DNA of 64,000 bases from Nitrospirota bacterium (lineage in GTDB: Bacteria > Nitrospirota > UBA9217). The stretch is taken from assembly GCA_963818475.1 (NCBI GenBank), contig CAWFSF010000006.1:736001-800000 (forward strand). The letters are read 5' to 3'. A program made the position numbers and the translations under genes. The notes beneath the pieces are model-generated. The model was not told the DNA's origin, made no database searches, and saw only the letters and a list, made by a program, of their open reading frames with translations. This document shows positions 4,191 to 32,394 of the stretch, in pieces. Position 1 is the stretch's first letter; each line of letters opens with the position of its first letter.

Positions 4191-4207
4191 ATTTTGCGCA
4201 GATAGTC

Positions 4208-6289: not shown

Positions 6290-6300
6290 TTCAAGAGGAG

Positions 6301-7205: not shown

Positions 7206-7272
7206 GCGCCCCTTATTGAGCTTGTCTTGGCGCGCCTCTTAAATTAACCAATTGGCAGATCTGACCGAATGG

Positions 7273-7287
7273 GCTTACAATGTAAGC
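7273..7287. promoter_or_regulatory. Palindromic operator upstream of the mazEF-type module
   Basis: GCTTACA-A-TGTAAGC perfect palindrome 25 bp before the antitoxin ATG. Confidence 0.6.
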
Positions 7288-7312
7288 ACATGGTAAAAGG
7301 ATGGTACCTGTT

Positions 7313-7561: not shown

Positions 7562-7778
7562 TGTCCGATGCCGTGCGCCGTGGCGATGTATTCCTGATCT
7601 CGCTCGATCCAGTATCCTTTCCGAATCGCATGCCGGTTTCAAGGACGTGCAGGCCATATCGTTCTGGATCAGATTCGCACAGTCGATCGCGAGCGTCTGG
7701 TTAAGAAACTCGGCAAACTCTCTGCTTCCACACTATCAAATGTTTTGGCAATTTTGCAGGAGATGTTCGCGCCCTAAT
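7555..7778 (+). pseudogene. PemK/MazF toxin with an internal deletion
   Basis: VRRGDVFLISLDP joined out of frame to YPFRIACRFQGRAGHIVLDQIRTVDRERLVKKLG...QEMFAP; the RP segment is missing. Confidence 0.8.
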
Positions 7779-7944
7779 TGTTTCGGCTCAGACTTGGATC
7801 TGTAGTTATTGTTCCTCCACCCCTCCATCCGTCGCCTTCTCTTTCTCTCGAAACAGCGCTCCTTTGTTTCCTTGTATGTTGATCCCCATGCGATCAGACC
7901 CTCCGATGGTATAATATATACAGGGAAGAAGGAGGCGAACGAAC

Positions 7945-8427
7945 ATGACGAAGAAACCGGCAATTACCCATAAGATCACGCCGCATCTCTGGTTCGACAA
8001 GGAGGCCAGGGAGGCGGCTGAGTTCTACACTTCGGTGTTCCCCAAGTCGAAGATCAAGAGCACAACGACGCTCAATGACACACCGTCCGGCACGGTGGAG
8101 GTCGTCACCATCGACCTCATGGGGCAGGAGTTCATGCTGCTCTCGGCCGGGCCGCTCTTCAAATTCAACGAATCGATCTCGTTCATCATCCGCTGCAAGA
8201 CCCAGAAGGAGATCGACTACTACTGGGAGAAGCTCTCTGCTGTACCGGAAGCGGAGCAGTGCGGCTGGCTCAAGGACAAGTACGGCCTGTCGTGGCAGAT
8301 CGTTCCGGCGGCCATGGACAAAATGATGAAGGACAAGAACAGGGAGCGGCTTGCCCGGGTGACCGAGGCATTCCTCAAGATGAAGAAGTTCGACATCAAG
8401 ACGCTCGAACGGGCATATAAGGGCTGA
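7945..8427 (+). CDS. VOC/PhnB-like protein (3-demethylubiquinone-9 methyltransferase family)
   Basis: KITPHLWFDKEA; FKFNESISF; CGWLKDKYGLSWQIVP. Confidence 0.9.
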   Translation: MTKKPAITHKITPHLWFDKEAREAAEFYTSVFPKSKIKSTTTLNDTPSGTVEVVTIDLMGQEFMLLSAGPLFKFNESISFIIRCKTQKEIDYYWEKLSAVPEAEQCGWLKDKYGLSWQIVPAAMDKMMKDKNRERLARVTEAFLKMKKFDIKTLERAYKG

Positions 8428-13158: not shown

Positions 13159-13420
13159 TCCCCATGGCACATGCGCTCCTTGTGCTCTTTGTCACCTTTC
13201 TTGCGTGCCCAAGAAAGGTGACCCAAAGAAGGGCACCCGGCGAATATTCTTAACGCCATGCTCGGTCGTCCTCAGTACATTTCGGAAACTCGCCCTGCGG
13301 GCTCAGACAGTCCGAAATGCTTCACCCTCGGACTCGGTCGCCCGGCTAAATTTTCGCATGGGGAACTGCTGTGAGGGTCTGACTCACCCAAACCCCGCAT
13401 ATTCCCGGAGCGGCCCTATG
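13159..13420 (+). repeat. Structured intergenic repeat (TTCTTGCGTGCCCAAGAAAGGTGAC type)
   Basis: GTCACCTTTCTTG...CAAGAAAGGTGAC hairpin; partial copy at 10264. Confidence 0.65.
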
Positions 13421-13562
13421 AATTTCTTGGGCACCCGTCTTGGCCTAGGTAGCGTCCCGCAGGGCGAACGCGCATGTCTGAGGCCGCAGGCCGAGTTTGC
13501 GCGAACGAGCGGACGTGGTCTTAATGGCTCGGTAGTATAATATATACAGATGGAGAACGAAC

Positions 13563-13931
13563 ATGTCAAAATTACACGACCCGAGAGTGTTATTCGCAGC
13601 CGAGCGGACATTATTGGCCTGGAATCGAACGAGCATATCGATCATGGCCTTTGGTTTTGTCATAGAGCGCTTTGGCCTCTTTCTGCAGATCACCGGCAGG
13701 GAAGAGTCTAAGCTATTCCACCGTCACCTCTCTTTCTTTGTTGGTGAGTCCTTTATGCTGCTGGCATCATTACTGGCCATTTACTCGATAGTTCAGCACA
13801 AGAAGATACTGCGGTCCATCAACGTCGATGACGTACCTGCTGGTTATAACCTTTCCATGGGAATGATCGCGAATGGAATTATCGGATTCCTGGGGATACT
13901 ATTAAGTGCCTATGTGTTCTGGGGTCTCTGA
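13563..13931 (+). CDS. YidH/DUF202 family membrane protein (Vtc1-like)
   Basis: DPRVLFAAERTLLAWNRTSISIMAFGFVIERFG; 3 TM segments. Confidence 0.9.
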   Translation: MSKLHDPRVLFAAERTLLAWNRTSISIMAFGFVIERFGLFLQITGREESKLFHRHLSFFVGESFMLLASLLAIYSIVQHKKILRSINVDDVPAGYNLSMGMIANGIIGFLGILLSAYVFWGL

Positions 13932-15009: not shown

Positions 15010-15936
15010 ATGTACCTGTATTTACCTGTAGCATTGACCAGCATCAACATCCTGATCCCCGTGGGGCTCGGGCTTGCCGTGGGCCTGCTTTCCGGCCTGT
15101 TCGGCGTGGGCGGCGGATTCCTTCTGACGCCGCTGCTTATCATGTTCGGCATACCGTCGACCGTTGCCGCGGCAACGGACTCCAACCAGATCGTGGCAGC
15201 GTCGACCTCGGGCACCTACGCGCACTGGAAGGTCGGGAACGTCGACTTCAAGATGGGGCTCTATCTCCTGGTCGGCGGCTTTGTCGGCGGCATTCTCGGC
15301 GTCCAGTTGATCAAACTGCTCCATGCCATGGGCAACGCCGATTTCGTGATCAAGATGACCTACATCCTTATGCTCGGCATCGTCGGCGTCTACATGTTCA
15401 TCGAGAGCCTCCAGAGCATGCGGAAGAAAAAGAACAGCTGTCGAAGAAGCGAAGGAAGAGAAAGAGTCCGCCGTGGGCAGGTTCCTGAAGTCTCTGCCGC
15501 TCCAGACCCGTTTTGAAAAGTCGGGCATCACCCATTCCATCTTCGTCCCGATCGTGCTCGGCGCGCTTCGTCGGCATCCTCGCGGCGATCATGGGCGTGG
15601 GCGGCGGGTTCCTCATGGTCCCGATCATGGTCTACATGCTCAGGATGCCGATGCACGTCGTGGTCGGCACGAGCCTGTTCCAGATCCTGTTCACCTGCAT
15701 CGAGGTCACGTTCCTGCAGGCCTACACCAACCACAGCGTGGACTTCATCCTTGCGGTGCTCCTGCTGCTGGGTTCGACCGTGGGCGCCCAGATCGGCGCT
15801 GTCCTTCGGCAAGAAACTCAAGGCAGAGCAGCTCAAGATCCTTCTCGCCACGATCGTGCTTGCCGTGACCGTGAAGATCGTTTTTGAGATGACGCTGACA
15901 CCGTCGTTACTTCTTTCCCAGGTTGGAGGACACTGA
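15010..15936 (+). CDS. Sulfite exporter TauE/SafE (TSUP) family protein (several frameshifts)
   Basis: Two GLFGVGGGF / MGVGGGF repeats; VVGTSLFQI. Confidence 0.9.
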
Positions 15937-16743
15937 TGAAACATTTTAGATTGCGGATTGCGGATTGCGGATTGGCGGTCATTACCGCTTTTGTATTCAT
16001 GATCACTTTTGGATTTGCCGCTCCGGCGTCGGCCATGCTGACGGCCAAGGCGAACCATGATCATATCACCATCGATTTCTTCTATCACGGAAGCACCGTG
16101 AGCGTAAAGGGCAATCTCGGAGCCGGGAACGGACCTGGTCATCAAGATAACCTCTCCTGAAGGCCATCAGCTCTTGAAGAAGAAGGGCAAGGTCGGGGGA
16201 ATGCTCTGGATGAACGTGGGACAGCTCAAGTTCGAGAACACGCCGAACTTCTACGAGGTCTTCAGCACGAAGAAGCTTGAGGACATCCTGAGCAAGGAAG
16301 AGATGGAAAAGAACGTGATCGGTTTCCCGGCTCTGGCGAAACACGTGGAGATCACGCCGGTCGCGAACGAGGAAGAGAAGGCCAAATGGTTCGATGAGTT
16401 CGTCAAGTTCAAGGAGGACTCCAAGGTGTATACCAGCTCGGACGGGAATATCACGACTAGCAAGAACGCCGAAGGCAAACAGGAATACTTTATCCTGACG
16501 GACTGGCCCTACCAGGCCCAGCCGGGCGATTATCTGGTGACGGTCTATGCAGTGAAGGACCATAAGGTCGTGGAGCAGGCCAACCTCGAAGGTGAACGTC
16601 GAGCAGGTCGGCATGGTCAAGATCGCTGGCAGGCATGGCCAAAGAACATGCCGGCAATGTACGGGTTCCTGTCCATCGGGGTCGCGCTGAGCGCCGGCTT
16701 CGGCGTGAGCATGGTGTTCAGAAAAGGCGGAGGCTCACACTGA
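15936..16743 (+). CDS. TIGR02186-family membrane protein (frameshifted)
   Basis: Signal peptide; ITIDFFYHG; KKGKVGGMLWMN; C-terminal TM; usual TauE partner. Confidence 0.8.
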
Positions 16744-17606
16744 TGTATAACTCCATTGTAGTCGGATATGACGAGTCGCTGTCGAGCAAGGCGGCGCTCA
16801 AGGAAGCGTCGCTCCGGATCAAGCGGACTGGGCGGGAAACTTATCCTCGTGCATTCGGTCTTTTTCGACCAGGAGGAGTTCGCCATACTGCCGGCGCAGA
16901 TGGAGAAGCGGTTCGAGTTCGGGACCCGCGTCTGTCTGGATGCAAAGAAGGACCTTCATGACGAGTTCGGTTTGAACGGAAGCGTGGATTCGCTCGTGTG
17001 TCAGGGCGAGCCGCCCGAGGTGCTTATCGATATCGCCCAGGAGAAGCAGGCGGACCTGATCGCGCTCGGCACCTACGGCAGAAAAGGGCTTAAGCGGCTG
17101 CTGATGGGCAGCGTGACGTCACAGGTGATCCTGAACTCGCCCTGCGACGTGCTCGTGGTTAAGAAGCCCTGCTCGAAATGCGCAGGCGCTTACCAGTCGC
17201 TCCTGGTGCCCTTTGACGGGTCGGAGACGAGCAAAAAAGCGCTGGTCCGGGCCTGCGAGCTGTCAAAGATCGACAATTCCGAGATCTCGGTCCTCTATGT
17301 GATCCCCCGGTACGAGGAGATGATGGATTTCTTCAAGACCGAGACCATCACCAAGAGCCTGTTCCAGGAAGCGGAAAAGATCATGGCCCAGGCGAAGGAG
17401 ATCGCTGCTCTGCAGAAGGTGCAGATCAAGGCGGTGGTCCAGGAAGGCCATGCGGCGAGAAGATCGTCGAGATCGCTGACACGTTCAAGAACGATCTGAT
17501 CGTCATGGGTACCCATGGCTGGCGGGGCATGAACAAGGCGCTCATGGGAAGCACGGCTGAGCGGATCATCGCAAATGCCTCGTGCCCGGTGTTGATCGTA
17601 AGATAG
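16743..17606 (+). CDS. Tandem universal stress protein (frameshifted)
   Basis: IVVGYDES; GTYGRKGLKRLLMGSV; second domain LVPFDGS...MGTHG..LMGSTAE. Confidence 0.9.
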
Positions 17607-17803: not shown

Positions 17804-18226
17804 ATGAAAGGTTATCGAAAAGTTCTTATAGCATTGAACGGCCACAAGGAAGTGCTGACACAGGGCATCAAACTGGCGCAGGACGAAAAGACCTGGATCA
17901 CGGTCGTCAAGGTGGTGCAGCCTTTTGACGGCGACCTGAACCTGACGGGCATCAAGAACCTGGATGACGTGCTGGACGACGGCGGGAACGCGGCCCTTTC
18001 CGAGATCAGGAAAACCGCGGAGGCAGAGGGCGCCCTGATCAAGACGAGGCTGGAACAGGGTGACGTGCCGCAGCGGATCGTGGAGGTCGCTGAAGAGGAA
18101 CAGTGCGATCTCATCATCATGGGATCGAAGAAAAAGAAGGGCATCTTCAGCCGGCTGTTCGGCGATCACATCGTGGAAAAGGTCATTGACCGGGCTCCCT
18201 GTCCGGTGTACGTCGTCGGGATCTGA
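17804..18226 (+). CDS. Universal stress protein
   Basis: RKVLIALNG; DLIIMGS; KVIDRAPCPVYVV. Confidence 0.9.
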   Translation: MKGYRKVLIALNGHKEVLTQGIKLAQDEKTWITVVKVVQPFDGDLNLTGIKNLDDVLDDGGNAALSEIRKTAEAEGALIKTRLEQGDVPQRIVEVAEEEQCDLIIMGSKKKKGIFSRLFGDHIVEKVIDRAPCPVYVVGI

Positions 18227-18586: not shown

Positions 18587-20245
18587 ATGGACATGACAGT
18601 ACAGCATTCATACAACAGACTGGTAACGCGCGGTGTCATTTCCCGCACTGCACTGGACCGGCTTATAGCGGAGGCGTCAGGCATCAGGCGCTGCGCTGGA
18701 AGACCTGCTTTTAAGAGCTGGTGTGCCAAAGCATGAGATCCTCTTCTGCCTTGCCGAGCAGTATGACTGTCCTTTTGTGGAATATGACGAGGGCGTCATC
18801 GTTTCCCAGCAGATCGTCCGGCGCATGGACATGGAGCGGTTGAAGCACGCGTCTCTGGCTTCCGCTCTCCATCTCGAAGGAGAAAGCCGAGGTCATTGCC
18901 TGCTCTCCCGGTGATCCCGGGGTATTGGAGGATATCCGCAGCACGCTGGGCGCCGACGAGGTCGCGTTCAAAGTGGCCCTTCCTTCCGATCTCATAAGGA
19001 TCATCGAACACAATCAGGACCTGAATCCCGGTTTCCCTCCCGCAGCCGGCAGAACGCCGCTCGCAAAGGTGCGGACCTTTCTTGCCAATGCGCGCTCCCA
19101 GTTCGCCTGCTACCGCACCTCGCTGGCAAAGGGGAGGACCGGGCTGGCCTTCTTGCGCACCGGGATCTCGTTCGTAACGACCGCGCTTTTGCTGTTCCGC
19201 GTCTTCGGGATGGGCTATCTCACCATTCTTGAAGCTTTGCTGTTCGCTGCCGGCGTCGGGATGGCGGTAGACGGCCTGCGATGGTATCTGCCTGCGCGGG
19301 CGACGGGAAAGAGCCTGCCCGAGTGTGCTTCTCCGGAACCGACCAACGGCACGAGCGTGCTCGCAGCCGGCTTTAAAGGCGATACTCCCGAATTTCACCG
19401 GACAGCAGAGGTCCCTGGTGCCGACACCCTTCGGCAGGGCTGGAACCGGCTTTCACCCGTGATGCGGCGACGATTCCTGGCGAGCGACCGGACCGATCTT
19501 GCCGAGGAACGGACAACGCTGGCATGCTTTCGGACGCTCATGGCGCGGGCACGGACGGGTCTTTCTTTTACCCGCACCGGCATAACGTTTATCGGTCTGG
19601 GCGTGGCTCTGGCGAGGCAACTCCCCGCAGGACCCTGGAGCGTCGTCGATGCTCTGTTCATCCTGGCCGGTGCGGCCATGGTGGCTGAGGGGTTCTTCTG
19701 GTATGTCCCCGGCCGAAGCGCAGGAGCAAAAGGTTTCGATTCAGTGAAGCGTTCCGAGGAAAAACCGCGCATCTGGGACTTTGTGTTTCCTCCTGCCTTC
19801 GCGCTTACTGCCATGAAACAGACGGCAGCAGGCCCTTCCCCTGGTCAGAGGTTTTTCCGAGCCCGGAATCTGGGCCACGACCGGCCTTGCGCTCGAGCGC
19901 ACGCTTCTTGCCGAACGGCGCAACGTGATGGCACGGCTCCGGACGATCATGGCGCGTTCCAGGACCGGGATGGCGATCATCAGGACAGGTATGAGCATCT
20001 CGGCTGTGGGGCTGGGGCTCCTGGTCTACTTCGGCGCTGCGAGCACGCTCTGGACTCTGTTCGATGCAGCCCTGCTGTTGGTTGGCCTGCTGCTCATCGT
20101 TGACGGGATCTACTGGTATCTGCCTGCTGAACGGGCGAGACAGCAGCTTCCCTACTGTTACGGAGAAATGGAAATTGCCATCCCCGATTACGGCGTTCCG
20201 GCCCGCTCCTGGGGCAAGGCGGTGTTCAGTCATGATGACCTATAG
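18587..20245 (+). CDS. GspE-N/MshEN-like domain fused to three extended DUF202 membrane repeats (frameshifts near 18690, 18850 and 19845)
   Basis: LVTRGVIS...GVPKHEILFCLAEQYDCPFVEYD, then 3 x [(RTxLAxx)n plus 2 TM]. Confidence 0.75.
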
Positions 20246-21449
20246 GATAACCTATGATGTAGATGCCGGGCCGCAAGCCGAGCAGTTCCTCATCCTGCTC
20301 GACTGGGGTGTGCTGACGCAGGAGGAATTCCGTTCTGCCGAGCGTGCGGCGGTCGCCCGGGGCATCGATTTCGAACAGGTCCTCATACGGGAATACGGTG
20401 TCCCGAAACAAACCCTGCTGGCAGCGCTTACCGAATACTATCGATGCCCCTCGATCGAATATGACGAACGGATGCCCGTTCCCGCAGAACTGCTGACCGG
20501 ACTCGACGGCGAACGGCTTTCACTGAACCAGTGGTTCCCGATCATCCACGACAAGAACACGGTCATCATCGCGGCTCGTGACCCCCAGAACCCGCTGCTG
20601 TACGAAGAGGTCCGGAAAGCGATCAAGGCGGAACGCTACGAGTTCCGGGTGGCGCTGGACGAGGACATTCAGTGGTTCATCCAGGACTACCTGCATGCAA
20701 AGCCGGGAACGCTGATCGGGACGGAGCGGACAGGCCTCGCGTACTGGCGCAACACCATGGCCCACTGGAGGACGCGGCTTGCCTGCTACCGGAACGATCT
20801 GGCAGAGGGCCGGACCGATCTCGCCTTCCTCCGCTGGGGGCTGGGGTTTGTCGCCCTGGCAGACGTGCTGCTCCGGTCGCAGACCGACGGTATGGCATGG
20901 GCATACTGGGCACTGAGCGCGGCCGGCACCGTGCTCGGGACCTTCGGCCTCCGGGGGTATCTGAAGGTGCGCAGGACGCGCATGAAGACGCCGGGCCAGC
21001 ATACGCTGGTGGAGGTGACCGCGGCGACACTGCAGTTCCTGGAGAAGTACCACGATCTGGACCAGTGCAGCATCGAACGAACGACAAAAGGGACCATGCT
21101 TGCGCGGCTCGGCGATTGCGTCGGCGGATACAGCACCATCCTCTCTCCCTCTCCGGCAAGCAGGGAACGGACCCATCTGGCACGCGAGCGGAACGTGCTG
21201 GCTGCCCAGCGGACCATCGCCGCCGCGTACCGGACCATTTATGCGCGGGCGCGGACCGGCCTCGCTTTTATCAGGACCGGCGTCGCTTTCACGGGTCTGG
21301 GGTTCGGACTCATGCATTATTTCGCCTTCAGTTGGTCAACGGCTTTTGACGTCCTGCTGATCGCGGCAGGGATCTTCATGGCTATTGACGGGCTGCTGTG
21401 GTATCTGCCGGTGCGGAAGGAACAGGCGGAGGTACCGCGGTGCGGATGA
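20232..21449 (+). CDS. GspE-N/MshEN-like domain fused to two extended DUF202 membrane repeats
   Basis: LLDWGVLTQEE..VLIREYGVPKQTLLAALTEYY..WFPI..IIAARDP, then 2 x [(RTxLAxx)n plus 2 TM]; ORF intact. Confidence 0.85.
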   Translation: MMTYRITYDVDAGPQAEQFLILLDWGVLTQEEFRSAERAAVARGIDFEQVLIREYGVPKQTLLAALTEYYRCPSIEYDERMPVPAELLTGLDGERLSLNQWFPIIHDKNTVIIAARDPQNPLLYEEVRKAIKAERYEFRVALDEDIQWFIQDYLHAKPGTLIGTERTGLAYWRNTMAHWRTRLACYRNDLAEGRTDLAFLRWGLGFVALADVLLRSQTDGMAWAYWALSAAGTVLGTFGLRGYLKVRRTRMKTPGQHTLVEVTAATLQFLEKYHDLDQCSIERTTKGTMLARLGDCVGGYSTILSPSPASRERTHLARERNVLAAQRTIAAAYRTIYARARTGLAFIRTGVAFTGLGFGLMHYFAFSWSTAFDVLLIAAGIFMAIDGLLWYLPVRKEQAEVPRCG

Positions 21450-21542: not shown

Positions 21543-22968
21543 ATGATCATGAAAATAGAAAACAAACTCATACTCTCGAACATCATGAACGGCGCGTTCA
21601 TCATCCTGATCGGCTTCTTCGCCTTTCAGAACATGAGCCTCGTGCTTACCAAGCTCAGGTTCGTCGAGATCGCCGACGATCTGAACGCATCTTTTCTCAC
21701 GATGCGACTGTCGGAAAAGAACTATTTTCTCTACCACGACCGCAAGGCGCTCGACGAGATACGGGAAAAGATCACGGACACGATGGACACGATCCAGGGC
21801 GAGAAGAAGGACATCATTCCGGCCATCGGCGAAACAGATCTCAAAAAGCTGGAATCGCTCCTGACGGCCTATTCCGATACGATCGAGGAAGCGCGGGACA
21901 AGAGGCAGCCTGATCCGGAACTGGAGGCGCGGATACGGGCGGCGGGAAAAAAGCTGAAGGAATATTCCGATTCCATAACCCAGCTCGAACGGAAACGGGT
22001 CAGCGATATCATCCTGAACTCGAAGCGGATACTGATCTTCTCGTTCTGGGCCATCCTGTTCTCCGCCTTGTTCATCGGGCATTTCATTTCCCAGAAGATC
22101 CTCAGGTCCTTGCGCGAGATCGAGAAACTGGCAAAGTCCATTTCCGGAGGGCAACTTCAACAAGATAGAAGGGTTCAGGTCCAATGACGAACTGGGCGCG
22201 GTCATCACGGCCATCAATTCCATGTCCGAGGAACTGGGCCATCGCGAGGAGGAGCTTATCCAGTCCAAGAAGCTGGCTTCGCTCGGCATCCTGACCGCGG
22301 GCGTGGCGCATGAGACTCACCAACCCGCTCAACAACATCTCCATGATCGCCCAGACCTACGCCGAGTTGTACGAGAAGCTGAGCGAACAGGACCGCATCG
22401 AGTTCATGAACAAGGTCGATGCGGAGACCGAGCGGATCCGGAAGATCGTGAAGAACCTGCTCGATTTTTCCAAACCCAAGGACGCTACGCCGAGCGAAGG
22501 GGACATCAATTCCGTTATCCAGAAGACGCTCACGCTCGTGCAGAACATGATCGATGTGTCGAACATCGAGACATCGATCCACCTCGCCGACGGTTTGCCC
22601 CATGTGTTCGTCGATGAGCATCAGATCCAGCAGGTCCTGGTGAACCTGGTGACCAATGCGGTCCAGGCCATGTCCACGGGCGGCAGGCTGGTCATTATCA
22701 ACGAGGATCGGGGAAGAACGGAGATTCCGTGGAGATAGGCGTTGCTGATACGGGCAAGGGCATCGCCCCCGAGTTCCTTCCCCATATCTTCGATCCCTTT
22801 TTCAGCACCAAAGGCGAAGGCGGCACCGGGCTCGGGCTTTCGGTCAGCTACGGGATCATCAGGAACCATCACGGAGAGATCAGGGTGGAGAGCAAGGTCG
22901 GCGTCGGCACGACGTTCACGATCGAGCTGCCCCGATACAAGAAAGAGGAGACGAACGATGAAGAGTAA
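21543..22968 (+). CDS. Membrane HAMP sensor histidine kinase, NtrB-like (frameshifted)
   Basis: 2 TM with a periplasmic helical domain; [14 protein letters not shown]; NAVQA; DTGKG; FFSTK; GTGLGL. Confidence 0.9.
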
Positions 22969-23329
22969 CAGGATCATGGTCATTGACGATGAAAAGATCG
23001 TGGGCGACATGGCAAAATTGTCGCTGGAGCAGGAAGGCTATGTTGTGGAGACGTTCCTGAACGCCGAGCCTGCGCTGAAGCGACTGCAGGAGGAAAAATT
23101 TGACGTTGTCGTGACGGATTACAAGATGAAAGGCATCGACGGCATGGAGGTGCTCCGGACTGTGAAGGACCTCTATCCCACGACCCAGGTCATCATGATA
23201 ACCGCCTTTGCCAATCTCGATGCGGCCATCGAAGCGCTCAGGCGGGACGTTCACGATTTCTTCCCCAAGCCGGTCAAGATCAAGGAATTAAAAGCATCGA
23301 TCAAGCGTGCACTTGAAAAGCACGGATAG
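22958..23329 (+). CDS. Single-domain response regulator (receiver)
   Basis: IMVIDDE; VVTDYKM; MITAF; FPKP. Confidence 0.9.
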
Positions 23330-23354
23330 GGCATGAAGCAGGATCGCCGTACAT

Positions 23355-25897
23355 ATGCGGGCATTGCTGCGCGCCCTCAAGCGGGGGCCACGAAACCGGG
23401 AGTCCTTTGAGCAGGTGTTCGGGAACTTCAGGGAGGTCCTCGACCGGAACAACCGTTCTCTCGAGATCATTACCGACATGGGCGATACGCTGGGCGGGGA
23501 TTATCTGTTCGATATCCAGTATGTGCGGAGGTCCTATGCCGAGCTGTACGCGGCAATGGGCGGGTCCCTCGAAAGCTTCACCCGACTGACGCAGGACCGT
23601 TATCCCCAGCTTGCGGAGGTGCTTGCGGGCATCGACGAACGGATCAGGCATGGCATCGAGGAGACCCTGCCCGAATCGAAGGAACTGGTCCTTCCCTATG
23701 ACCGGATCGCCAGCGACAGGCTGCGGGAGGTCGGCGGCAAGAACGCCAACCTGGCAGAGCTCAGGAACGTGTTAAAGTTCGAGGTTCCCGACGGATTCGC
23801 TATCACGACGGGTGCCTTCGATGCGTTCATGCGTCATAACCGTGTTTTTGAGAAGGCCGGACTTCCTGCTGAGAATGGCCCGATGTCCCGAAGCCATGCT
23901 CCGGGAAGTTGTATGAGCTGGTGCTGCACGGCGCCATGCCTCCTGTACTCAGCCGCGCCATCGAACAGGCCGTTCAAAAGATCAGATCGCAGTGCGCCGG
24001 ATGCAGCATCGCCGTTCGCAGCAGCGCAGGCGAAGAGGACGGGGAGTTCTCCTTCGCGGGCCAGTTCGATACGGTCCTGAACGTGCCGCTCGATGCGCGG
24101 GAGATCGAGAAAGCATACCGGAAGGTGATCGCCAGCCTCTTCTCCGGCAAGTCGTCCCTCTATCAGGCCCGGCTGGGCCTTCATCTCAAGGACATGAAAA
24201 TGGCCGTTGCATGCGTGGCCATGGTGGATGCCGAAGCGAGCGGGGTCATATATTCCCGCGATCCCGGCGGGGACCTGAACAGCATGGTCATAAGTTCCAC
24301 CTGGGGTCTGGGTGCTGCCATCGTCGAAGGACAGGCAGACGCCGATCTGTTCATTGTCAGCAGGGAGGGCGATCACGAATTGGTCGGAACGCGGATCGGT
24401 TCCAAAAGCTCCATGGTCGTGCCGGCCGTTGGTTATGGTGTGGTCACGATCGCCACGCCGGCTGATAAGCAAGAGCGGCCGAGCCTGCTTGCCGGGCAGG
24501 TTTCCGAGCTGGCCCGTCTGGCGCTGCGGGTAGAAAAACATTTCAGGAGACCGCAGGATATCGAGTGGGCCATCGACCGGCAGGGGCAGATCGTGCTTCT
24601 GCAGACGAGGCCGCTGCGGACGATCGAGGACAGGTTGCCTGCTGCAGCAGGGCACGTTGATCCTGCCCGCCAGGTCATTGCAAAGGACCTGGGCGTGGCC
24701 GTACAAAAAGGCGCTGCCGCAGGGAAGGTCTTTGTCCTGAAGAACGAACGCGAACTTGATGCCATCCCGCGGGGAGCCATACTGGTCGCGCGCCACGACT
24801 CCTCTCATTTCGTACGCGTCATGACCGAGGTGTCGGCCATCATCACCGATGCCGGGGCACCGACGAGCCACATGGCGGCATTATGCAGGGAATTCAGGAT
24901 CCCGACGGTGGTGAACGCGGTCACGGCAATGGAACTGCTCTCCACGGGGCAGGAAATTACGGTCGCGGTGAATGGCAACGGCGCAACGCTTTATGCGGGA
25001 GCGGACCAACGGCTCGCCGCGCGTGCCATGCGTGATGAGGCGTCCATGGAAGAGCTGTTCGAATTCCGCAAGAAGCGCTATTTGCTGCGCTATATCGCTC
25101 CACTCAACCTCATCGATCCGCTCCGGGATGAGTTCGCACCCGGCGCCTGCAGGACCATGCATGATATCCTGCGGTTCATCCATGAAAAGTCAGTCTCGTC
25201 TTTGATCGAATATGCCGAATATGGCGTGCACTCCGGCACGGTCAGGCTGGACCTGCCGATCCCTGCGGGGATCATGCTCATCGATATCGGGGGCGGACTG
25301 GTGAATCCCGCCCGCGCCGACCATATTCCTGCTGAGCAGGTCACCTCAGAGCCGCTTCGCGCGATCATAAGCGGCATGACCCATCCCGGGACCTGGCGTT
25401 CTGATGCCGTCCCGATGCAGGTCCAAGACTTCATGTCGAGCATGCTGCGCGTGCCGGACCTCATGTCGGATAGCCGCGGAGGGGTCGAAACGAACATGGC
25501 GGTCATCTCAAAAGAATATGTCCACATGAGCCTCAAGTTCGGCTACCATTTTATCGTGCTGGATTGCTTCTGCAGCACGAACGCCCGAAACAACCATGTA
25601 TTTTTCCGGTTCACCGGCGGAGCCACTGACATGTCCAAGCGATCACGGCGGCTTCAGCTGATCGCCCTGATCCTGGAGCAGTACGGTTTTAACATCGGAA
25701 CCAAGGGAGACCTGATCGTAGCCCGCCTTGCCAACATGCCGCAAGCAGAGATGCTTGCCGTTCTGGACCAGCTGGGCCGACTTATTTCCTTCACCCGACA
25801 GCTGGATGCCGTGCTGAACGATGACCACGCAGTGAAGCGCTACGCGCAGTCGTTCCTCGACGGGAACTATGTGTACGCCGGTTCTCCGCAACACTAG
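23355..25897 (+). CDS. PEP synthase/PPDK-like dikinase: ATP-grasp, phospho-His domain and non-canonical C-terminus (frameshift near 23900)
   Basis: VGGKNANL; AVRSSA..ED..SFAGQ; QDIEWA..LQTRP; TSHMAALCREFRIP. Confidence 0.85.
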
Positions 25898-25997: not shown

Positions 25998-26027
25998 GCT
26001 GAAGGAAAAACTCCTTCAGCTTTTTTT
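25998..26027 (+). terminator. Rho-independent terminator
   Basis: GCTGAAGGA-AAAAC-TCCTTCAGC followed by T7. Confidence 0.8.
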
Positions 26028-26085
26028 GTGATTGCACGGAACTGACAACCTGTGTTACTGTGGCCATGTTGCTTAAAAAATGGGG

Positions 26086-26293
26086 GTAACTATTCAGGTC
26101 AAAAGCAAGGCGTCTCCCGCAGAGTCGCAGAGGCGCAGGGAAGTCGTTAAACGGGGGAAGATCAATTTTTAACCTTTCGTTTGTGAAACAAGGATTATAT
26201 CCGTTGCCATCCCCGCGGCTCAGCGTCTCTGCGCGAAAAGGCTTTCAATTTTGACTTGTTGGAGCCAAATACAAAAACGAGCTGAATAGTTAC
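26086..26293. mobile_element. MITE with 12 bp TIRs enclosing a nonamer palindrome
   Basis: GTAACTATTCAG...CTGAATAGTTAC; internal CGCAGAGTCGCAGAGGCGCAG...GCGTCTCTGCG. Confidence 0.75.
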
Positions 26294-26349
26294 AACGGGT
26301 ATGCGCAGATTGTTCAGTATTAAACGGAGGCCGGGAATATCGATGTTCA

Positions 26350-26630
26350 AGCCTCTATCTTGCCGTGGGGCATTCAGCGCGTCGCGATACCTTTGCCATG
26401 CTCCATACCAAGGGCATTTTTCTCGAACAGAAGCCGATCTCTGTCGGCGTGCGGATTGAGCACCCGGTGGAGATTATAAATCTCATGCGTTATGGCGACA
26501 AATACAAGGACTACTCCGCCATCGGCGCTGCCACCTATTCTCTCAATTACACGGACCGAAAAATAAAGAGGGGCGTGTATACCTTCTGCATGTGTCCCGG
26601 CGGCGAGGTGATGAACCCTTCGTCAGAAGA
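26350..26630 (+). pseudogene. Internal fragment of an FAD-dependent dehydrogenase (COG2509-like)
   Basis: LAVGHSARRDT; GVRIEHP; VYTFCMCPGGEV; both ends missing. Confidence 0.8.
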
Positions 26631-26889
26631 GAACCTCCCTCAGAACATGCTGTTTGTAATATTAGTCAGGTAAAAACTGATATTCCGCTTAATGCATATT
26701 AGTCAGCATTCAAATACTAATGACATCAACCAGTTAAGTCAGGTTTTTTTCTAAAAACATTGACCATAACGACAATCCATGCTACTGTATTTCGTCCCTA
26801 GAATAACTTGTTGGAATAAAACTTGCTCCAACCGGCAATTCGAGACGGGACAAGGCCGCTCGAATATTGGAAGGGAAAGAAACAACGGA

Positions 26890-27130
26890 GATAATAATTC
26901 GATTATTCCTTTACTCCTCGCTTTCATCGCCTTTTTGGGTTGCTCCAAATTTAAAGAAGGTGAATGCATTCAAAATACCGCTGATGGAACCATCTATCGC
27001 ATTACCGCTGTCCACTTCAGTGAATACACACCTTCAAGGGTGGTTCGGTGATAAATGGGGGATTCCTGTAAGCGGCTCGTTCGATGTTATTTGATTCGCG
27101 TTATGTAACGGTAACGTGTCCATATAGTGA
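26890..27130 (+). pseudogene. Small lipoprotein-like ORF remnant
   Basis: LLLAFIAFLGC lipobox; frameshifted; start unclear. Confidence 0.35.
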
Positions 27131-27148
27131 GAAGACAATTAAATAAAA

Positions 27149-27498
27149 TGATTTCTGTAAATGATGTAAAGATGATAATTGTAGCATGGGCGAAAACCCT
27201 TCCTTTTAAAGTCAAGATCCATCTTTTCGGCTCTTTTCTGAAAGGAGATAAGATTCCTTCTGATATTGACATTTCTCTTGAATTTCTTGAACCTTTCTCG
27301 GAGGTAGAACGAACACTCCTTTGGATAAAACATCATAAAAACTGGGAAACGTATCTTTCAGAAAGATTCGGAATGAAGGCCGACCTTCAACTTTATGAAG
27401 CCGACAAAAATATTCCAAAGTACCTTGCATCATCTTCTTTATTGCTATTCGATTCACGGGTATCGGAAGCCGAATACGAAATAAATAAGTGCCAATGA
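27149..27498 (+). CDS. Minimal nucleotidyltransferase (MNT) domain protein, probable cassette gene
   Basis: IHLFGSFLKG....SDIDIS. Confidence 0.75.
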
Positions 27499-27564
27499 TT
27501 ATGCCAAGCTCATGCCCTGCATCAAAAAGTGCATATTTAACTAGTCGCATATCCTAAAAAAATA

Positions 27565-27624
27565 TTCCAACCAGAAGGTCGAGAGAGTCGGGGCTACGCC
27601 CCGCTCCTCACCTTCCTGTTGATC
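27565..27624 (+). other. attC site
   Basis: TTCCAAC..GAAGGT(C)GAG..CGGGGC tac GCCCCG..CTCACCTTC..GTTGATC with an extrahelical base. Confidence 0.8.
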
Positions 27625-27668
27625 CATATTTAAAAGAGAAAAATTTATTCTGAAAGAAGTAATAGCCG

Positions 27669-28487
27669 ATGACCTTGACAAATGTAAGAAACTACGTAGT
27701 TGAACATTGGCCCATCTTGGTTACCTTTGGTGTTGGGATATCCGGCCTTATAGCCTTCCTAAGGAATCTTTACCAAATCAAAAATCTCCGACTTCAAAAT
27801 AAGAAGCTCACGAATGATAACCTCAACGATGAATCTACGATAAGCAGTGACGAGGAGCGGCCACCCCGCTATAAAAATACTCTTTCTGAGTTAGATATCT
27901 TGTACACTGATGTTGCTCGAAACAGCCTAACATTGTTGCCGCTTACAAAAAATCAATTTCTTAATCTGCTATCGATTGAGTTAAAAGCCACCCGTTGTTT
28001 TCTCAAATAGATTATGAGTCACTCCCTTTACCGTTAAAAGGAGGATACTTTGCGATTGTAACGAAAGCTAGCAATAAAATTACGTTGGAAACGATTTCAA
28101 AAAGTGCCGTTAAAAGAGAGCTATTTTGATGCTTGGTCGCAATTGTCGCAGTTATATTTTCAAGCTTACAGATTACCTTTTCGATCTAATCACAACATAC
28201 TGAGCAACGAGAACGAATTCAAGAGATCTTCTAAATTACTAAACCACCTTATTGTCTCTGCACAAAAATATATTAATCAGACAAGGGTGATAGATGATAA
28301 AAACGTGCGTATAGCCTGCCATGACTTAAAAACACGAGCGGCCGCTGCAAGCTTAAAAGCAGAATTCGAATATTTAAAATATATGGATTCGATGGATTCC
28401 TCTTTGCTAGGCAGTATCGCTGTTCAGATGGATATAATAGTTTCCTCTATACACAAAATTCTTGTTGAGTACAGCGTGCCGAAATGA
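27669..28487 (+). CDS. Hypothetical protein with an N-terminal TM, split into 27669-28010 and 28104-28487 (probable frameshifts)
   Basis: AT-rich ORFs directly after attC; no recognised family. Confidence 0.5.
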
Positions 28488-28554
28488 TGCTCTTGTTGTG
28501 AAGCAGTTAGCATAATGGCAAATACTAATTCATGCAGTAGCATCAAAACGCGAA

Positions 28555-28986
28555 ATGGGTAAGCCAAAAAAAAGCATTTTGCTGGTTGATGACGAAGAGT
28601 CTATGTGTGATCTGATTAAAGCTTTTCTAGATAGCGATAGTCAAAGCGTTACAGTTGCGCATAATGGTGATGAAGCTCTTACTCTTTTTAAGAAACAATC
28701 ATTCGACCTAGTGATAACTGATGTTAGAATGCCAGGCATGGACGGAATTCAGCTGCTCGCTCAAATTAAAAAAATTGACTCGAAAATTGATGTGTTCATG
28801 CTTACTGCTTTTGGCGACATTAAAACGTACCAAGAAGCGATAAGCTTGGGGGCAGCAGAATACATTAATAAGCCAACAACTATAAATGAGATCAAGAGTC
28901 TTGTGCAAAATTATCTTAGTAGTTCAAGAAGTGCCTATATATCTCGGATAAAATCAAAAATTATTCGGTTTTGGCTTAAATTATGA
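28555..28986 (+). CDS. Receiver-domain response regulator inside the cassette array
   Basis: ILLVDDE; ITDVRMPGMDG; LTAFG; YINKP; AT-rich. Confidence 0.85.
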   Translation: MGKPKKSILLVDDEESMCDLIKAFLDSDSQSVTVAHNGDEALTLFKKQSFDLVITDVRMPGMDGIQLLAQIKKIDSKIDVFMLTAFGDIKTYQEAISLGAAEYINKPTTINEIKSLVQNYLSSSRSAYISRIKSKIIRFWLKL

Positions 28987-29018
28987 CTGTGTAATGAAAG
29001 TTTTATCATGCCATCTGA

Positions 29019-29078
29019 TTTTAACAGGCGCGTCCACATCGCCTCGCCAATAAGCGGCGAGTGACGCGCGTGTTAAAT
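29019..29078 (+). other. attC site
   Basis: TTTTAAC..CGCGTC(C)AC..TCGCC..GGCGAGTGACGCG..GTTAAAT. Confidence 0.85.
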
Positions 29079-29094
29079 GTCTAGGAGATACAAT

Positions 29095-29463
29095 ATGGAA
29101 GACAAGCTCCTAATAGCAATTGCAGGTGGATTTATTGGTGGTGTCCTTGGGGTAATTGGTACAATTGTCAGTTCTTATTTTGGCCCTAGAAAATTAGAAG
29201 AATGGCGAGAGAAAAGAAAAGCCGAAAAATGGGATGGACCAAGGAAACGTCTTCTGCTTAACATGTTGAATGGCCCGACCATGCAACTGCGGTCAATTGA
29301 AACTCTTTGCAGAGCTTCTGGTACCGAACCAGAAGAATGTCGGCGTCTGCTAATAGAAATTCAAGCAAGAGGTATCCGTCTTAAAGGAAATAGAGAAGGT
29401 TGGGTATTAATAAAAAATAGGCCGCTTGAACAATTAACTGAAGATGAAGAAGCTGCCATTTAA
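29095..29463 (+). CDS. Cassette-borne hypothetical protein (N-terminal TM, possible winged-helix C-terminus)
   Basis: RBS AGGAG; stop codon lies within attC R'' ATTTAAC. Confidence 0.75.
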   Translation: MEDKLLIAIAGGFIGGVLGVIGTIVSSYFGPRKLEEWREKRKAEKWDGPRKRLLLNMLNGPTMQLRSIETLCRASGTEPEECRRLLIEIQARGIRLKGNREGWVLIKNRPLEQLTEDEEAAI

Positions 29464-29517
29464 CAATCGGGTCGAGGCCGACGCGCAAGAAACGCGCGTC
29501 TCACCCGCATGCTGTTC
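29458..29517 (+). other. attC site (degenerate R')
   Basis: ATTTAAC..CGGGT(C)GAG..ACGCGC..GCGCGTCTCACCCG. Confidence 0.75.
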
Positions 29518-29591
29518 CAGCGGTTGGGAAGCGCCGCTGGAATGCCGGCGATAACTCGCTAATTGCCTTGAAACGTGGCTGAGAAACGCCG

Positions 29592-29655
29592 CAGGAACCA
29601 GGCAATCAACATCGACGCCCGCTGCGCGGGCAGCGAGTTATCGCCGGCATTATGT
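29592..29655 (+). other. Degenerate attC site closing a very short ORF-less cassette
   Basis: AAC..GGCAATCAAC..GCCCGC..GCGGGC..GTTATCGCC..ATTATGT. Confidence 0.6.
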
Positions 29656-29732
29656 GTTCTAGAAATGATGAGATTCGATCGGGAGCTGACAATGGATTTT
29701 CGCTCTGATCCCATACGTATATAGAGAGTGCA

Positions 29733-30624
29733 ATGAAGTCAGGTTATATATATGTTTTGGTGCACCCGTCCGATCCTGACCTTTACAAGATTGGAATAAC
29801 AATCCGTAAACCCGAACAGCGATTGGCTCAGCACAATAGCGATTACACCCAAATAGCAGGCCATATTGTTAAAGAAACTGGTCAGAAATGGGAATTGAAG
29901 GAATACCATGCCGTCCCTGATCCTTATTGGGCCGAAAGGGTCTTTTGGGGGAACAACACCTTTCGCAGATGTCCCGTATCGATATGGAGTTGAAGTTGAA
30001 AGGATGGCCTGGGATCAAGTACAGCTAGGACTAGATGCAGCAAAGAAAGCGGGTGTCCTGCCAGGACCAGATCCTTTGCCGGATCATGTGTATGCCTATA
30101 CAGCATCGATCAAAAAACGACTGGAAGGCCGTGGCATCACCCTTTTAGGTTACGTGCGAAGTATTATAAGTGGAAAGGCTAACTTTCGATGCAGCAATGG
30201 CCACGAATGGCGGACGACACCCAAGCATGTGGGAGAAGGTCAAGGCTGTCCTGAGTGCGGGATCGGTGAACAAGATCCAGAAGCAATCAGGCAAAGGATT
30301 AAGGCAGGCGTAATATGTCTATTAACGCACCCTGACAAGCCAGGATTTGTAAGGATTGGGCTGGGTTACGGCACACTCGAAGAGGTTTGCAGAGAAAGTC
30401 CTTGGGGCGACTGGGAGGTGCATCGCAATCGAAATGTCGAGGAAGTCGCTTTAGCTGAATCACTAATCTGGGAATTGCTGGGTGAACTCCTACCCCATGG
30501 TAGCGAACCAATCAAAAAGGATTTGAATGAAGCAGAGGATGCCTTCCGCAAATTGATTTACGCGATGCAAGAAGAGATTGCTTTTGAGGAGAGAAGAAAA
30601 GAGGACACTCATAAGACTGACTGA
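29733..30624 (+). CDS. GIY-YIG (T5orf172-like) nuclease with a zinc ribbon and a second degenerate GIY-YIG (frameshift near 29950)
   Basis: GYIYVL..LYKIGIT..PEQRLAQHN; CSNGHEW..GCPEC; GVICLLTHPDKPGFVRIG. Confidence 0.75.
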
Positions 30625-30646
30625 ACATAATGTAATGGGAAAAAAC

Positions 30647-30706
30647 ACATAGCAAGCCAACCCAGGCGACGCCAAAGATCTGCACGCCTGGTTTCATTCG
30701 TTAGCA
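30647..30706 (+). other. attC site (degenerate R'')
   Basis: ACATAGC..AACCCAGGCG..CGCCTGGTT..GTTAGCA. Confidence 0.7.
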
Positions 30707-30734
30707 TGCACTACTATATAGGTACAGAGAATCC

Positions 30735-31646
30735 ATGAACTCGCAGGAACCATTAAACAAAACGGAGCAGCAACAGAAATATATTGGATGGCATGTTGTT
30801 GCTATTCTCGATCTGTTGGGACAGCAAGATGCGCTTAGAAATTTAACGGTATTGCCAAATCGCAATAATAAAGAAGAATTTGATGAATTCAAACGTAAAG
30901 TAGAGGAATTTTATAAACCATTCTACGCAATTAGAAAATTCTTTACGAGCAGCATTCAAATATATCAAGCTGGAAAAGATATTAGTCAATTATCACCGGA
31001 CGAACAAGATTTTTTGAAATCATTCAGAAACTCTCCCATCTTCCTGCGACATTTTTCAGATTCATTAATCGCTCACGTTCCCTTGAACAAAGATATCAGC
31101 AAGTTTCCTTGCAGGGCTATCTATGGGGTACTCGCGGCTACAGCCCAAACAATGGTCTCATGCCTTGCAAATAAAATGGCACTGCGTGGTGGAATAGAAC
31201 TCGGGATAGCCATGCACCTTGATGAAAATGAGATATATGGTCCAGCATTGGCAAGGGCACATACATTGGAAAACAAAATAGCTCAATACCCCCGGATACT
31301 TATCGGCGATGAGCTTGTTCGTTACCTTCATGCTGTTGCTGGACAAGATCCTAGTAGCTCTGAAGCAAGAGTGAACAGCGGCTTGGCAGCAAAATCTTTA
31401 GAACTACTCGCTGTGGATGACGATGGCCAGATGTTTCTTGATTATTTGGGACCACACTTTCGAGATGCGCTTCAGCATTTACCGATAAGCAAAGAAGCCG
31501 TTCAAATGGCATATAATTTTGTCATTGAACAGTCCATTAAACATAAAGAGTCTCGCAACTCAAAGTTAGGCTTTCGATATACGTTGCTTCGGAATTACTT
31601 CGAGTCTCGACTAGCGTTATGGGGGCTATCTACCGCACTTGAATAG
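30735..31646 (+). CDS. Class III nucleotide-cyclase-like cassette protein
   Basis: VAILDLLG; FSDS; LRGGIELG; IYGPALARAHTLE..AQYPRILI. Confidence 0.65.
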   Translation: MNSQEPLNKTEQQQKYIGWHVVAILDLLGQQDALRNLTVLPNRNNKEEFDEFKRKVEEFYKPFYAIRKFFTSSIQIYQAGKDISQLSPDEQDFLKSFRNSPIFLRHFSDSLIAHVPLNKDISKFPCRAIYGVLAATAQTMVSCLANKMALRGGIELGIAMHLDENEIYGPALARAHTLENKIAQYPRILIGDELVRYLHAVAGQDPSSSEARVNSGLAAKSLELLAVDDDGQMFLDYLGPHFRDALQHLPISKEAVQMAYNFVIEQSIKHKESRNSKLGFRYTLLRNYFESRLALWGLSTALE

Positions 31647-31684
31647 CGGTCGAGACGAGCAAGATGATTCCTTAATGTATTATG

Positions 31685-31739
31685 TGCCAACAATCGTTCC
31701 ACGCCGACCGCTTCGCGGCATGTGAACTCATCGTTCAAA
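31685..31739 (+). other. attC site
   Basis: TGCCAAC..GTTC(C)AC..GCCG..CGGC..GTGAAC..GTTCAAA. Confidence 0.75.
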
Positions 31740-31973
31740 TGCAAGTTTCAACCGGTAATCGTTAGTTCTTCTGACTAATCGTAACCCACAGTTGCACGTG
31801 TAATCAACATATGATACCGCTACCCGATGGTAGCGGTTGATAAGCATTTTTTTAAGCGAGGCATAGATCCATGAAACAGAGATCTATGCTTTTTTTGTGC
31901 ATTTTTTCTTGACAAAGACGGTTCATTGACTTAAAGTTAAACAGTTGTTTTATAATAGTGGAGGGTTGATGTT

Positions 31974-32394
31974 ATGCGTAACATGCGGTTATTTATAGGT
32001 TTATTGTGCTTCATTTTCCTGTTTGCTTCTGCTGCCCTGGCCCAGTTTCCTGTCATTAGTGCCGACGACGTCAAGGTATGGATGCGCGGCAAAGCAGAAG
32101 GTCGTGCTCATTGACTCGCGGCTGCCTGAGGAATATCAACAGGCCCATCTTCCGGGAGCCATCAGCATCCCGGCAGAGCGCATGAAGCTGGAGGCGAAAA
32201 AGCTTCCCAAGGACAAGACCACGCCGCTCATTTTTTATTGCCGGGGCGAGGGATGCACTCTCAGCAGGACTGCGGCATATGCTGCGATGGAAATGGGATA
32301 CACCCATCTTATGATCTATCAGGCGGGATTGCCTGACTGGCTGCTGCGCGGGAACCCGGTCCAAAAGGGCGACAAGCCGGGATCGCTCAAGTAA
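31974..32394 (+). CDS. Exported rhodanese-domain protein (frameshift near 32090)
   Basis: Signal peptide; IDSR..EYQQAHLPGA; FYCRGEGC; GLPDW. Confidence 0.85.

Follow-up and report, generated by a model that had tools for sequence, protein, structure and literature searches.

What would a bacterium do with two overlapping genes whose products each begin with the N-terminal domain of a secretion or pilus ATPase, carry no ATPase, and continue as a row of arginine-studded hairpins, three in the first protein and two in the second? The question is raised by genes A and B at positions 18587-21449 of a 64,000-nucleotide stretch of a Nitrospirota bacterium (GTDB lineage UBA9217; GenBank assembly GCA_963818475.1, contig CAWFSF010000006.1, positions 736,001 to 800,000 of the forward strand), the whole of which we call the window. 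The domain content of the pair is clear, its count of three plus two units is fixed, the two genes are linked and the arginines of the units are invariant. Structural modelling predicts that the units form a ring with inward-pointing arginines, and from this we infer that anions could be conducted. The explanation which we favour, and to which we give about half of our confidence, is that A and B form a 1:1 complex in the inner membrane, a closed pseudo-fivefold ring of three plus two hairpins whose arginine lumen would bind or pass anions. The parts of the pair are as follows.

18587-20245 (alternative start 18593), + strand: gene A, about 551 codons if read through, stop codon at 20243-20245
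18587-19029, + strand: MshEN/GSPII-like N-terminal domain of A; Pfam MshEN at 4.1e-8 in the orthologue; two of the three frameshifts lie inside it
19030-19302, + strand: unit A1, a six-arginine ladder helix running into the first transmembrane segment (TM1), then the second (TM2); helices 153-204 and 210-239 in the orthologue model
19447-19719, + strand: unit A2, the best DUF202 stretch by Pfam
19856-20128, + strand: unit A3, with threonine at rung 1 followed by five arginines; begins just past the third frameshift
20129-20245, + strand: conserved C-terminal tail of A, with a predicted contact to the MshEN-like domain of B
20232-21449, + strand: gene B, intact, 405 amino acids, an MshEN-like domain and two DUF202 hairpin units
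20271-20696, + strand: MshEN/GSPII-like domain of B, recognized by Pfam MshEN (1.9e-11), by Foldseek and by superposition on 5htl_B
20706-20978, + strand: unit B1, the most divergent unit (branch length 2.26)
21147-21419, + strand: unit B2, a DUF202 hairpin

The start of B and the stop of A overlap by 14 bases. A first-pass annotation, made from the letters alone, had described two overlapping genes with five quoted repeat strings in a three plus two arrangement, and all of these are present in the translations. Since A is interrupted in the window, all protein-level work on it was done with the intact orthologue (L017) of a same-genus genome, G004, and the window gene was not mended. MshEN and DUF202 are the only Pfam families above their cut-offs in A and B; no ATPase domain (no T2SSE match), no TTM/CYTH and no SPX domain was found by Pfam in either protein. 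B reached 44.2 bits with MshEN (cut-off 23.1) and 31.4 bits with DUF202 (PF02656; 2.6e-7, cut-off 23.4), the latter in two stretches. The third frame piece of A matched DUF202 at 4e-8 and 34 bits, the fourth stayed below the cut-off at 20.7 bits, and intact orthologues scored 28.3-63.8 bits. The first and second pieces match no Pfam family because the frameshifts cut the MshEN-like domain. NCBIfam has no model for A, and for B only a sub-threshold PilB match (26.5 bits against a cut-off of 675.65) confined to the N-terminal domain. The nearest clusters in the protein atlas are 'DUF202' and 'DUF202/MshEN' proteins, whose scores of 0.77-0.87 serve as leads only.

Each unit is 91 residues long and consists of six R-T-x-L-A-x-x heptads, a membrane helix that follows without a break, a short loop and a return helix. 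The first-pass annotation had seen each repeat as a long helix plus two membrane segments; the two membrane passes stand, but in the AlphaFold2 (AF2) models the ladder helix runs on into the first of them without interruption. The RT-x-LA-xx-RT motif of DUF202 corresponds to rungs 5 and 6 in all 35 aligned units, and at all but one of the five positions a (D/E)G..WY(L/V)P motif closes the return helix. The exception is B1, in which this DG..WYLP motif of TM2 is missing and RWG replaces RTG at rung 6. The rungs in the window add up to 29 arginines and one threonine, that of A3. Among 83 A and 82 B sequences of 52-93% identity, the rung arginines at their seven-residue spacing are invariant or at least 90% conserved, and the ladder pattern is therefore not a matter of chance. 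The tail of A likewise holds invariant residues (P519, Y520, C521, Y532, G533, W539 and F544). Since each unit crosses the membrane twice, it begins and ends in the cytoplasm, and the linkers of 45-57 residues which separate the units are long enough to reach back to the distal end of the ladder that follows.

Is the number five a property of the pair or an accident of this genome? In 11 fetched relatives A is an uninterrupted frame of 546-564 amino acids overlapping B. A profile of the unit found three units in A and two in B in 10/10 fetched loci; this count omits the eleventh (L018), which shows the same two open reading frames (ORFs). Over 251 genomes of the phylum, the profile matched 62 at E<=1e-6, 45 of them with exactly five units and 17 with one. 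Sums of two, three, four or six were not seen in any of the 251, with at most 20 first-look candidates scored per genome, so that weak extra copies could be missed. G004 is a 46th genome with five units, while G022 has four on a contig that starts inside A; sums of two, three or six are likewise absent from the full set of 256 genomes. The genomes with five units span at least six GTDB families. When five of the 17 single-match genomes were opened, the matches proved to be small canonical DUF202 ORFs of 98-146 amino acids, whose match is confined to the hairpin and the final two or three rungs; G094 and G103, strong single matches in incomplete genomes, are probably cut pairs. Thus, to the question posed by the first-pass annotation, whether homologous pairs always sum to five, the answer is that every complete case does, and that the pair is conserved and overlapping.

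When 35 units of seven genomes were placed in a maximum-likelihood tree, A1, A2, A3, B1 and B2 each formed one group, which takes four changes, the minimum. Support was 100/100 for A2 and B1, 100/99 for A3, 87/97 for A1 and 63/46 for B2. This grouping by position indicates that the five positions were already distinct before the lineages split and that no loss or exchange of a position has followed. Among 1.84 billion representative proteins searched, only 427 matched at E<=0.001, and none of the best 150 of these had more than three full units. Six representatives that looked like an MshEN domain with one unit (P0278, P0286, P0374, P0279, P0292 and P0315) look on inspection like truncated or frameshifted fragments of A and not a separate architecture. 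One further protein, P0264 (399 amino acids), resembles an A in which the unit 1 ladder leads straight into the unit 2 hairpin, so that two units remain. Recombination or a collapse during assembly could account for it; as it is one cluster lacking genomic context, we do not treat it as an exception.

Is gene A functional at all in this strain? It is split into four pieces (frames 2, 3, 1 and 2). DNA alignment with two same-genus genomes located the breaks at single extra bases near 18677-18682, 18851 and 19823, which are the sole indels of the window's A relative to both genomes, and this bears out the first-pass reading of A across three frameshifts. Public metagenome contigs of relatives (85-95% alike) are without the extra base wherever they cover it (two, one and two contigs, respectively) and show no further indel in the 1.7 kb. 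Moreover, tblastn with nine cluster proteins of G004 revealed 13 frame changes in 6/9 window genes between 15010 and 25897, and in DNA alignments the single-base differences inside these cluster genes are mostly one-base insertions in the window. The source genome is a 7-contig assembly, 91% complete. In a search of sequencing runs, no run contained more than 0.10 of the sampled words and no RNA run was listed. The frameshifts in A are probably assembly errors, because relatives lack the insertions and similar insertions break five other genes of the nine-gene cluster. Three frameshifts could also mean that A is a true pseudogene and that the pair is defunct in this strain. We consider this very unlikely, as the three insertions together return A to its starting frame, frame changes in 6/9 genes are a technical signature of the assembly, and the pieces are otherwise 67-92% identical to the intact orthologue (91% and 92% for the two long ones). 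The breaks are a warning about assembly quality and not about biology, and any ORF-based reading of this genome needs care.

The N-terminal domains might suggest a quite different role. In the AF2 models the domain of A superimposes on MshE (5htl_B) with Z 14.2 and a root-mean-square deviation (rmsd) of 3.3 over 138 aligned residues, and that of B with Z 13.9 and an rmsd of 3.6 over 139; Foldseek matched the domain of B to the N-domains of PilF, MshE, PilB and XpsE. As judged from these models, both are true MshEN/GSPII folds, and the GspE/PilB-type domain without an ATPase that had been noticed in each protein is indeed what is there. Could A and B then be accessory proteins of secretion or a pilus, or receptors of cyclic di-GMP (c-di-GMP)? 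Some homologues are named 'type II secretion protein' in databases and the fold would fit. We find the idea hardly credible, since an ATPase domain is lacking, no pilus or secretion genes occur in the 10 neighbourhoods scanned, and the relaxed c-di-GMP motif, as given in the Methods of PMC5013675, is matched by 0/20 A and B proteins. By their sequences, these domains have lost the motif. A precedent is described in the available part of the same paper by Wang et al. (2016), where XpsE is a non-binding MshEN-type domain without the c-di-GMP motif.

How the five units come together was addressed by structure prediction. The AF2 model of the A orthologue (pLDDT 82.2, pTM 0.77) contains three long helices (153-204, 288-342 and 425-479) and that of B (pLDDT 76.7, pTM 0.54) contains two (168-215 and 309-363). 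These ladder/TM1 helices are 48-55 residues long, and each is followed by a return helix. The tail of A has a pLDDT below 50 when A is modelled alone. Predicted together, A and B gave an ipSAE of 0.76 (0.76, 0.78 and 0.72 in the runs), compared with 0.00 for the best of three controls. This mark was reached in 58/80 solved complexes and 2/110 mismatched pairs, counts which are only a rough calibration because our own A and B alignments were used in the prediction. The runs had at least 71% of contacts in common, with a partner pLDDT of at least 67. In the predicted complex A1 (153-204) runs along B2 (312-363) and A3 (423-477) along B1 (162-209), and residues 515-527 of the A tail contact B at 52-88 and 148-155. 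At both seams between the chains, the earlier helix is engaged through heptad positions g, a, d and e and the later one through a, b, e and f. Positions a (arginine) and e (alanine) are common to both faces and must, in such a model, point to the axis. Arginines of the same rung are in predicted contact (R174 of A with R334 of B), and the threonine of one helix contacts the arginine of the following helix, a contact that would account for the RT pair being invariant. With A1 on B2, A3 on B1, A2 between A1 and A3, and B1 beside B2, the simplest arrangement suggested by the model is a closed ring A1-A2-A3-B1-B2. The pseudo-pentamer of three plus two units with arginine rings, as first proposed, thus gains from the conservation and from the controlled complex prediction, and the ring itself is a predicted structure.

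We propose the following mechanism. The overlapping genes would yield A and B in equal amounts, as the 1:1 halves of one inner-membrane complex. Five long inner helices would make a helical barrel, with the TM1 part spanning the membrane, about four heptads (roughly 40 Å) extending into the cytoplasm and the five return helices (TM2) packed outside. Within the R-T-x-L-A-x-x heptad, arginine and alanine would face the axis while threonine and leucine would seal the seams between helices, which would give a lumen of up to six arginine rings, 29 arginines and one threonine in the window. Such a lumen would be stable or useful only with anions inside, and the likeliest job of the complex would be to bind an anion or a linear polyanion and pass it between cytoplasm and periplasm. 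The two MshEN-like domains would sit at the cytoplasmic mouth, the tail of A docking on the domain of B. The universal stress proteins (USPs) of the operon, a kinase and receiver pair, and a co-inherited dikinase would presumably control or feed the complex.

The obvious point of reference is the yeast VTC complex. In the available parts of PMC9911596, its channel is made by five TM1 helices (three of Vtc1, one of Vtc3 and one of Vtc4), each subunit has three membrane helices, the pore is lined by K24 and R31 of Vtc1 and by K622 and R629 of Vtc4, each pair seven residues apart, and the channel is narrowest at R31. A conserved E30-R83 salt bridge appears in the accessible text of bioRxiv 10.1101/2023.01.27.525886. 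Given this spacing and the alignment of the DUF202 motif to rungs 5 and 6, the ladder of A and B resembles the VTC pore motif with about four cytoplasmic rungs added.

Several observations speak against the ring-shaped channel which we favour. Its closure and the orientation of its arginines were deduced from inter-chain contact lists alone, those of the A1/B2 and A3/B1 seams. The offset between A3 and B1 is about 268-269 where 262 would be expected, which puts B1 about one heptad out of register, and the ring modelled here may depart from a flat fivefold shape. Since the structures of VTC are publicly available, the success of the complex prediction may reflect the memory of the model and not an independent inference. 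A and B have two membrane helices per unit (ladder/TM1 and return), as against three in VTC as described in the parts of the paper cited above, and they have no counterpart of the E30-R83 pair of the bioRxiv text: glycine, alanine or serine precedes the arginine of rung 5. No VTC chain was retrieved when PDB sequences were searched with the B profile, the unit profile and the small DUF202 protein (profiles at E<=10), nor did one appear in the listed rows of the fold searches with the A and B models, although short helical hairpins are hard to detect in searches of either kind. Gene A is broken in this assembly, and its function in this strain depends on the breaks being errors. Genomes of one family are kin, and genome counts overstate their independence. 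Finally, 30 buried guanidinium groups are energetically costly, and the helices could instead form a solvent-exposed or lipid-facing stalk.

Two of these observations can be placed in context. A1 and B2 are in register in the predicted complex, unlike A3 and B1. The shift of B1 in the model may place it one rung deeper, may reflect an asymmetric, gate-like position, or may be an artefact of the model. The unit profile had a single match in the PDB, a TetR regulator at E 0.044, which we took as chance. After MshEN, the best structural matches of the helical part of A were designed circular tandem-repeat toroids (8e0o_B and 7rdr_A, each with Z 10.9 and 166 aligned residues), a range in which helical likeness may mean a common arrangement only. 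The helical parts of A and B also matched generic bundles (syntaxin, STAT) as well as toroids at Z 8-11, as is common for helical models.

What if nothing crosses the membrane? In a non-conducting stalk, the five ladder helices would make up a coiled-coil scaffold or sensor, with anionic lipids or a soluble polyanion as its ligand, and would signal to the kinase and receiver. It would suit such a role that a HAMP histidine kinase and a receiver usually adjoin the pair (8/10 loci), that MshEN-type domains are docking and regulatory modules, and that relatives with one hairpin carry very long ladders, one of them (P0303) fused to a receiver domain. On the other hand, the membrane part is homologous to the channel-forming VTC unit, and the strict conservation of five distinct positions and of the TM2 motifs suits a defined pore better. 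We regard the stalk as unlikely, though it deserves a serious hearing.

If A and B are a channel for anions, which anion would be handled? The neighbouring genes of the conserved cluster offer some leads.

15010-15933, + strand: TauE/SafE-family permease, in four frame pieces
15936-16740, + strand: Alph_Pro_TM (TIGR02186) membrane protein, in two pieces
16743-17603, + strand: tandem USP, in three pieces
17804-18223, + strand: single USP, intact
21549-22962, + strand: HAMP histidine kinase, in four pieces
22958-23326, + strand: receiver-only response regulator, intact
23340-25897, + strand: phosphoenolpyruvate (PEP)-synthase-like dikinase, in two pieces

In the window and in 9/10 fetched loci, the pair is immediately preceded on its own strand by the TauE, Alph_Pro_TM and USP genes; by this count L025 has no Alph_Pro_TM match, and in one locus the TauE/SafE permease was not scored by Pfam. 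The HAMP histidine kinase lies downstream of the pair in 8/10 loci, and the receiver and dikinase follow it in at least five. Among 64 genomes of the family, 34 have both Alph_Pro_TM and the pair, three the pair alone, six Alph_Pro_TM alone and 21 neither. No paper on the Alph_Pro_TM membrane protein (TIGR02186, PF09608) was found in the literature. These neighbours would be in keeping with a channel for a sulfur oxyanion or another small anion (sulfite, sulfate, thiosulfate, phosphate or pyrophosphate) working with the TauE/SafE permease module, a special case of the anion-passing ring. Its attraction is the position of the three genes directly upstream and the presence of Alph_Pro_TM in 34/37 genomes with the pair. 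However, Alph_Pro_TM also occurs in 6/27 genomes without the pair, three of them 100% complete, so that the modules are separable, and six arginine rings look excessive for a small ion. We consider this version distinctly unlikely.

The dikinase is the more telling neighbour. Its residues 115-568 hold the ATP-grasp and mobile histidine domains, preceded by an N-terminal extension of about 115 residues and followed by about 285 C-terminal residues which belong to no family; the protein stays under every NCBIfam cut-off. For the C-terminal part only unnamed PEP-utilizing clusters were found, together with a weak row containing PhoU_div (TM-scores 0.51/0.24), which was not used. With the C-terminal part as query, orthologues were found in 33/37 genomes with the pair and 1/27 without it. 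Orthologues were defined as having at least 53% identity and E<=3e-96, a threshold set after the gap had been seen, with the next matches at 37% or below. Where the dikinase and B share a contig, they are mostly 4-7 kb apart. This co-inheritance and proximity make the dikinase the best candidate partner of the pair.

Farther along the window, stretches at 26001-32000 and 2001-8000 have a lower G+C content (0.42-0.48, compared with 0.52-0.61 elsewhere), and the former is filled with short ORFs on the same strand.

Could the cargo be polyphosphate (polyP), as the VTC analogy of the first-pass annotation implied? This part of the proposal gained no support. Neither A nor B has a TTM or SPX domain, and polyphosphate kinases are rare in the family: PPK1 (PF02503) was absent from the six pair-bearing genomes first checked and present in 1/64 genomes of the family (G169, with 4% contamination), and PPK2 (PF03976) in 0/64, while the same searches were positive in 7-8 of 14 control genomes. 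This scarcity is a trait of the family as a whole (64 genomes, the source genome among them), regardless of the pair, which is present in 37/64. Without PPK1 and PPK2 the family has no known source of polyP, whether or not the pair is there. A link between PPK and the pair was considered and set aside, as PPK is missing from nearly the whole family. A strict VTC-like channel which threads polyP across the inner membrane would explain why there are five DUF202 units, as in the 3:1:1 complex of Vtc1, Vtc3 and Vtc4, whose pore residues are also seven apart in the available parts of the published description; stacked rings of arginine and threonine would suit a linear phosphate polymer, and a phosphotransfer enzyme, the dikinase, is co-inherited with the pair. 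Set against this, the polymerase and sensor domains of VTC are lacking in A and B and the kinases are lacking in the family, and we judge such a channel to be quite improbable. A bolder version makes the pair, the kinase and receiver, and the dikinase together a bacterial counterpart of VTC, in which the dikinase would make a linear anionic polymer to be threaded across the inner membrane through a nanotube of five hairpins and six arginine rings, in a lineage devoid of PPK1 and PPK2. The polymer would be polyP made by a PPK-independent route or some other phospho- or sulfur-chain anion. We offer this as speculation, with little expectation that it will prove correct as a whole. The lack of PPK1 and PPK2 and the presence of an unusual co-inherited dikinase nevertheless raise the question of which anion or polymer is handled by the anion-passing ring.

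The window holds one more DUF202 gene, in the following surroundings.

13205-13540: ORF without a family, 111 amino acids, preceding the small DUF202 gene
13563-13931: canonical small DUF202/YidH-type gene, 122 amino acids, Pfam 7e-15, two rungs

The canonical motif of the small protein aligns to rungs 5 and 6 of the units (hhalign E 3e-4, with a probability of only 38.6%). Its gene is not syntenic in G004. As a possible member of the complex it was rejected: the five units of A and B already close the predicted ring, and the gene lies outside the conserved neighbourhood of the pair.

To our knowledge, DUF202/YidH is a widespread bacterial membrane family without a known function, of which only the VTC subunits of eukaryotes are understood. 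No description of the MshEN-DUF202 fusion pair was found in the literature, although the MshEN architecture tables of Wang et al. (2016) might mention it. Among the matches listed there was no paper on the structure or function of bacterial YidH/DUF202/PF02656, and none which treated DUF202 and MshEN together. In the available portion of PMC10299036, E. coli YidH was picked in a screen for D-alanine export, with D-alanine levels unchanged.

Small DUF202/YidH proteins share with A and B the RT-x-LA-xx-RT motif at the start of TM1 and the same hairpin, but each of their chains carries a single unit with two or three rungs and lacks an N-terminal domain, whereas in A and B the units stand in tandem, have six rungs and add up to a fixed heteromeric count. 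A third form is represented by single-hairpin DUF202 proteins with long RTxLAxx arrays (P0347, P0311, P0309, P0381, P0366, P0322, P0302 and P0303) of at least a dozen heptads (some 12-25 as estimated by eye), in P0303 with a C-terminal receiver domain. They have the same heptad and the same terminal hairpin as A and B; unlike these, they have one hairpin per chain and no MshEN domain, and they were not found here with the neighbourhood of A and B. Presumably they form homo-oligomers and, if these are pentamers, they would be very long arginine-lined tubes. The N-domains of MshE, PilB, PilF and XpsE/GspE are like those of A and B in fold and in being N-terminal docking or regulatory modules; in A and B, however, no ATPase follows the domain and both 24-residue c-di-GMP motifs are lost.

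Rows of arginine are also used in an unrelated protein, the phosphate porin OprP, in which an arginine ladder hands an oxyanion along the pore. OprP is an outer-membrane beta-barrel of a fold and family unrelated to A and B, and it serves as an analogy for the stacked arginine rings.

A close parallel is VTC itself, as far as its published description was available. Both systems have DUF202 units, five of them and not identical, with basic residues at seven-residue spacing. The VTC channel is formed by the inner TM1 helices, and the counterpart in A and B is predicted from contact lists. VTC, however, assembles its five units from five chains and A and B from two; VTC has about two rungs and A and B six, in a barrel that would extend into the cytoplasm; and A and B have MshEN-like domains in place of the TTM polymerase and the SPX sensor. 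As the pair shows, a unit count fixed at five is found in bacteria too, and here the basic residues which would line the pore are multiplied into a six-rung ladder. This yields a concrete, testable idea for the whole DUF202 family, that of a fivefold anion-binding helical barrel; the pair would also be a rare case in nature of a long barrel of helices with a charged lumen.

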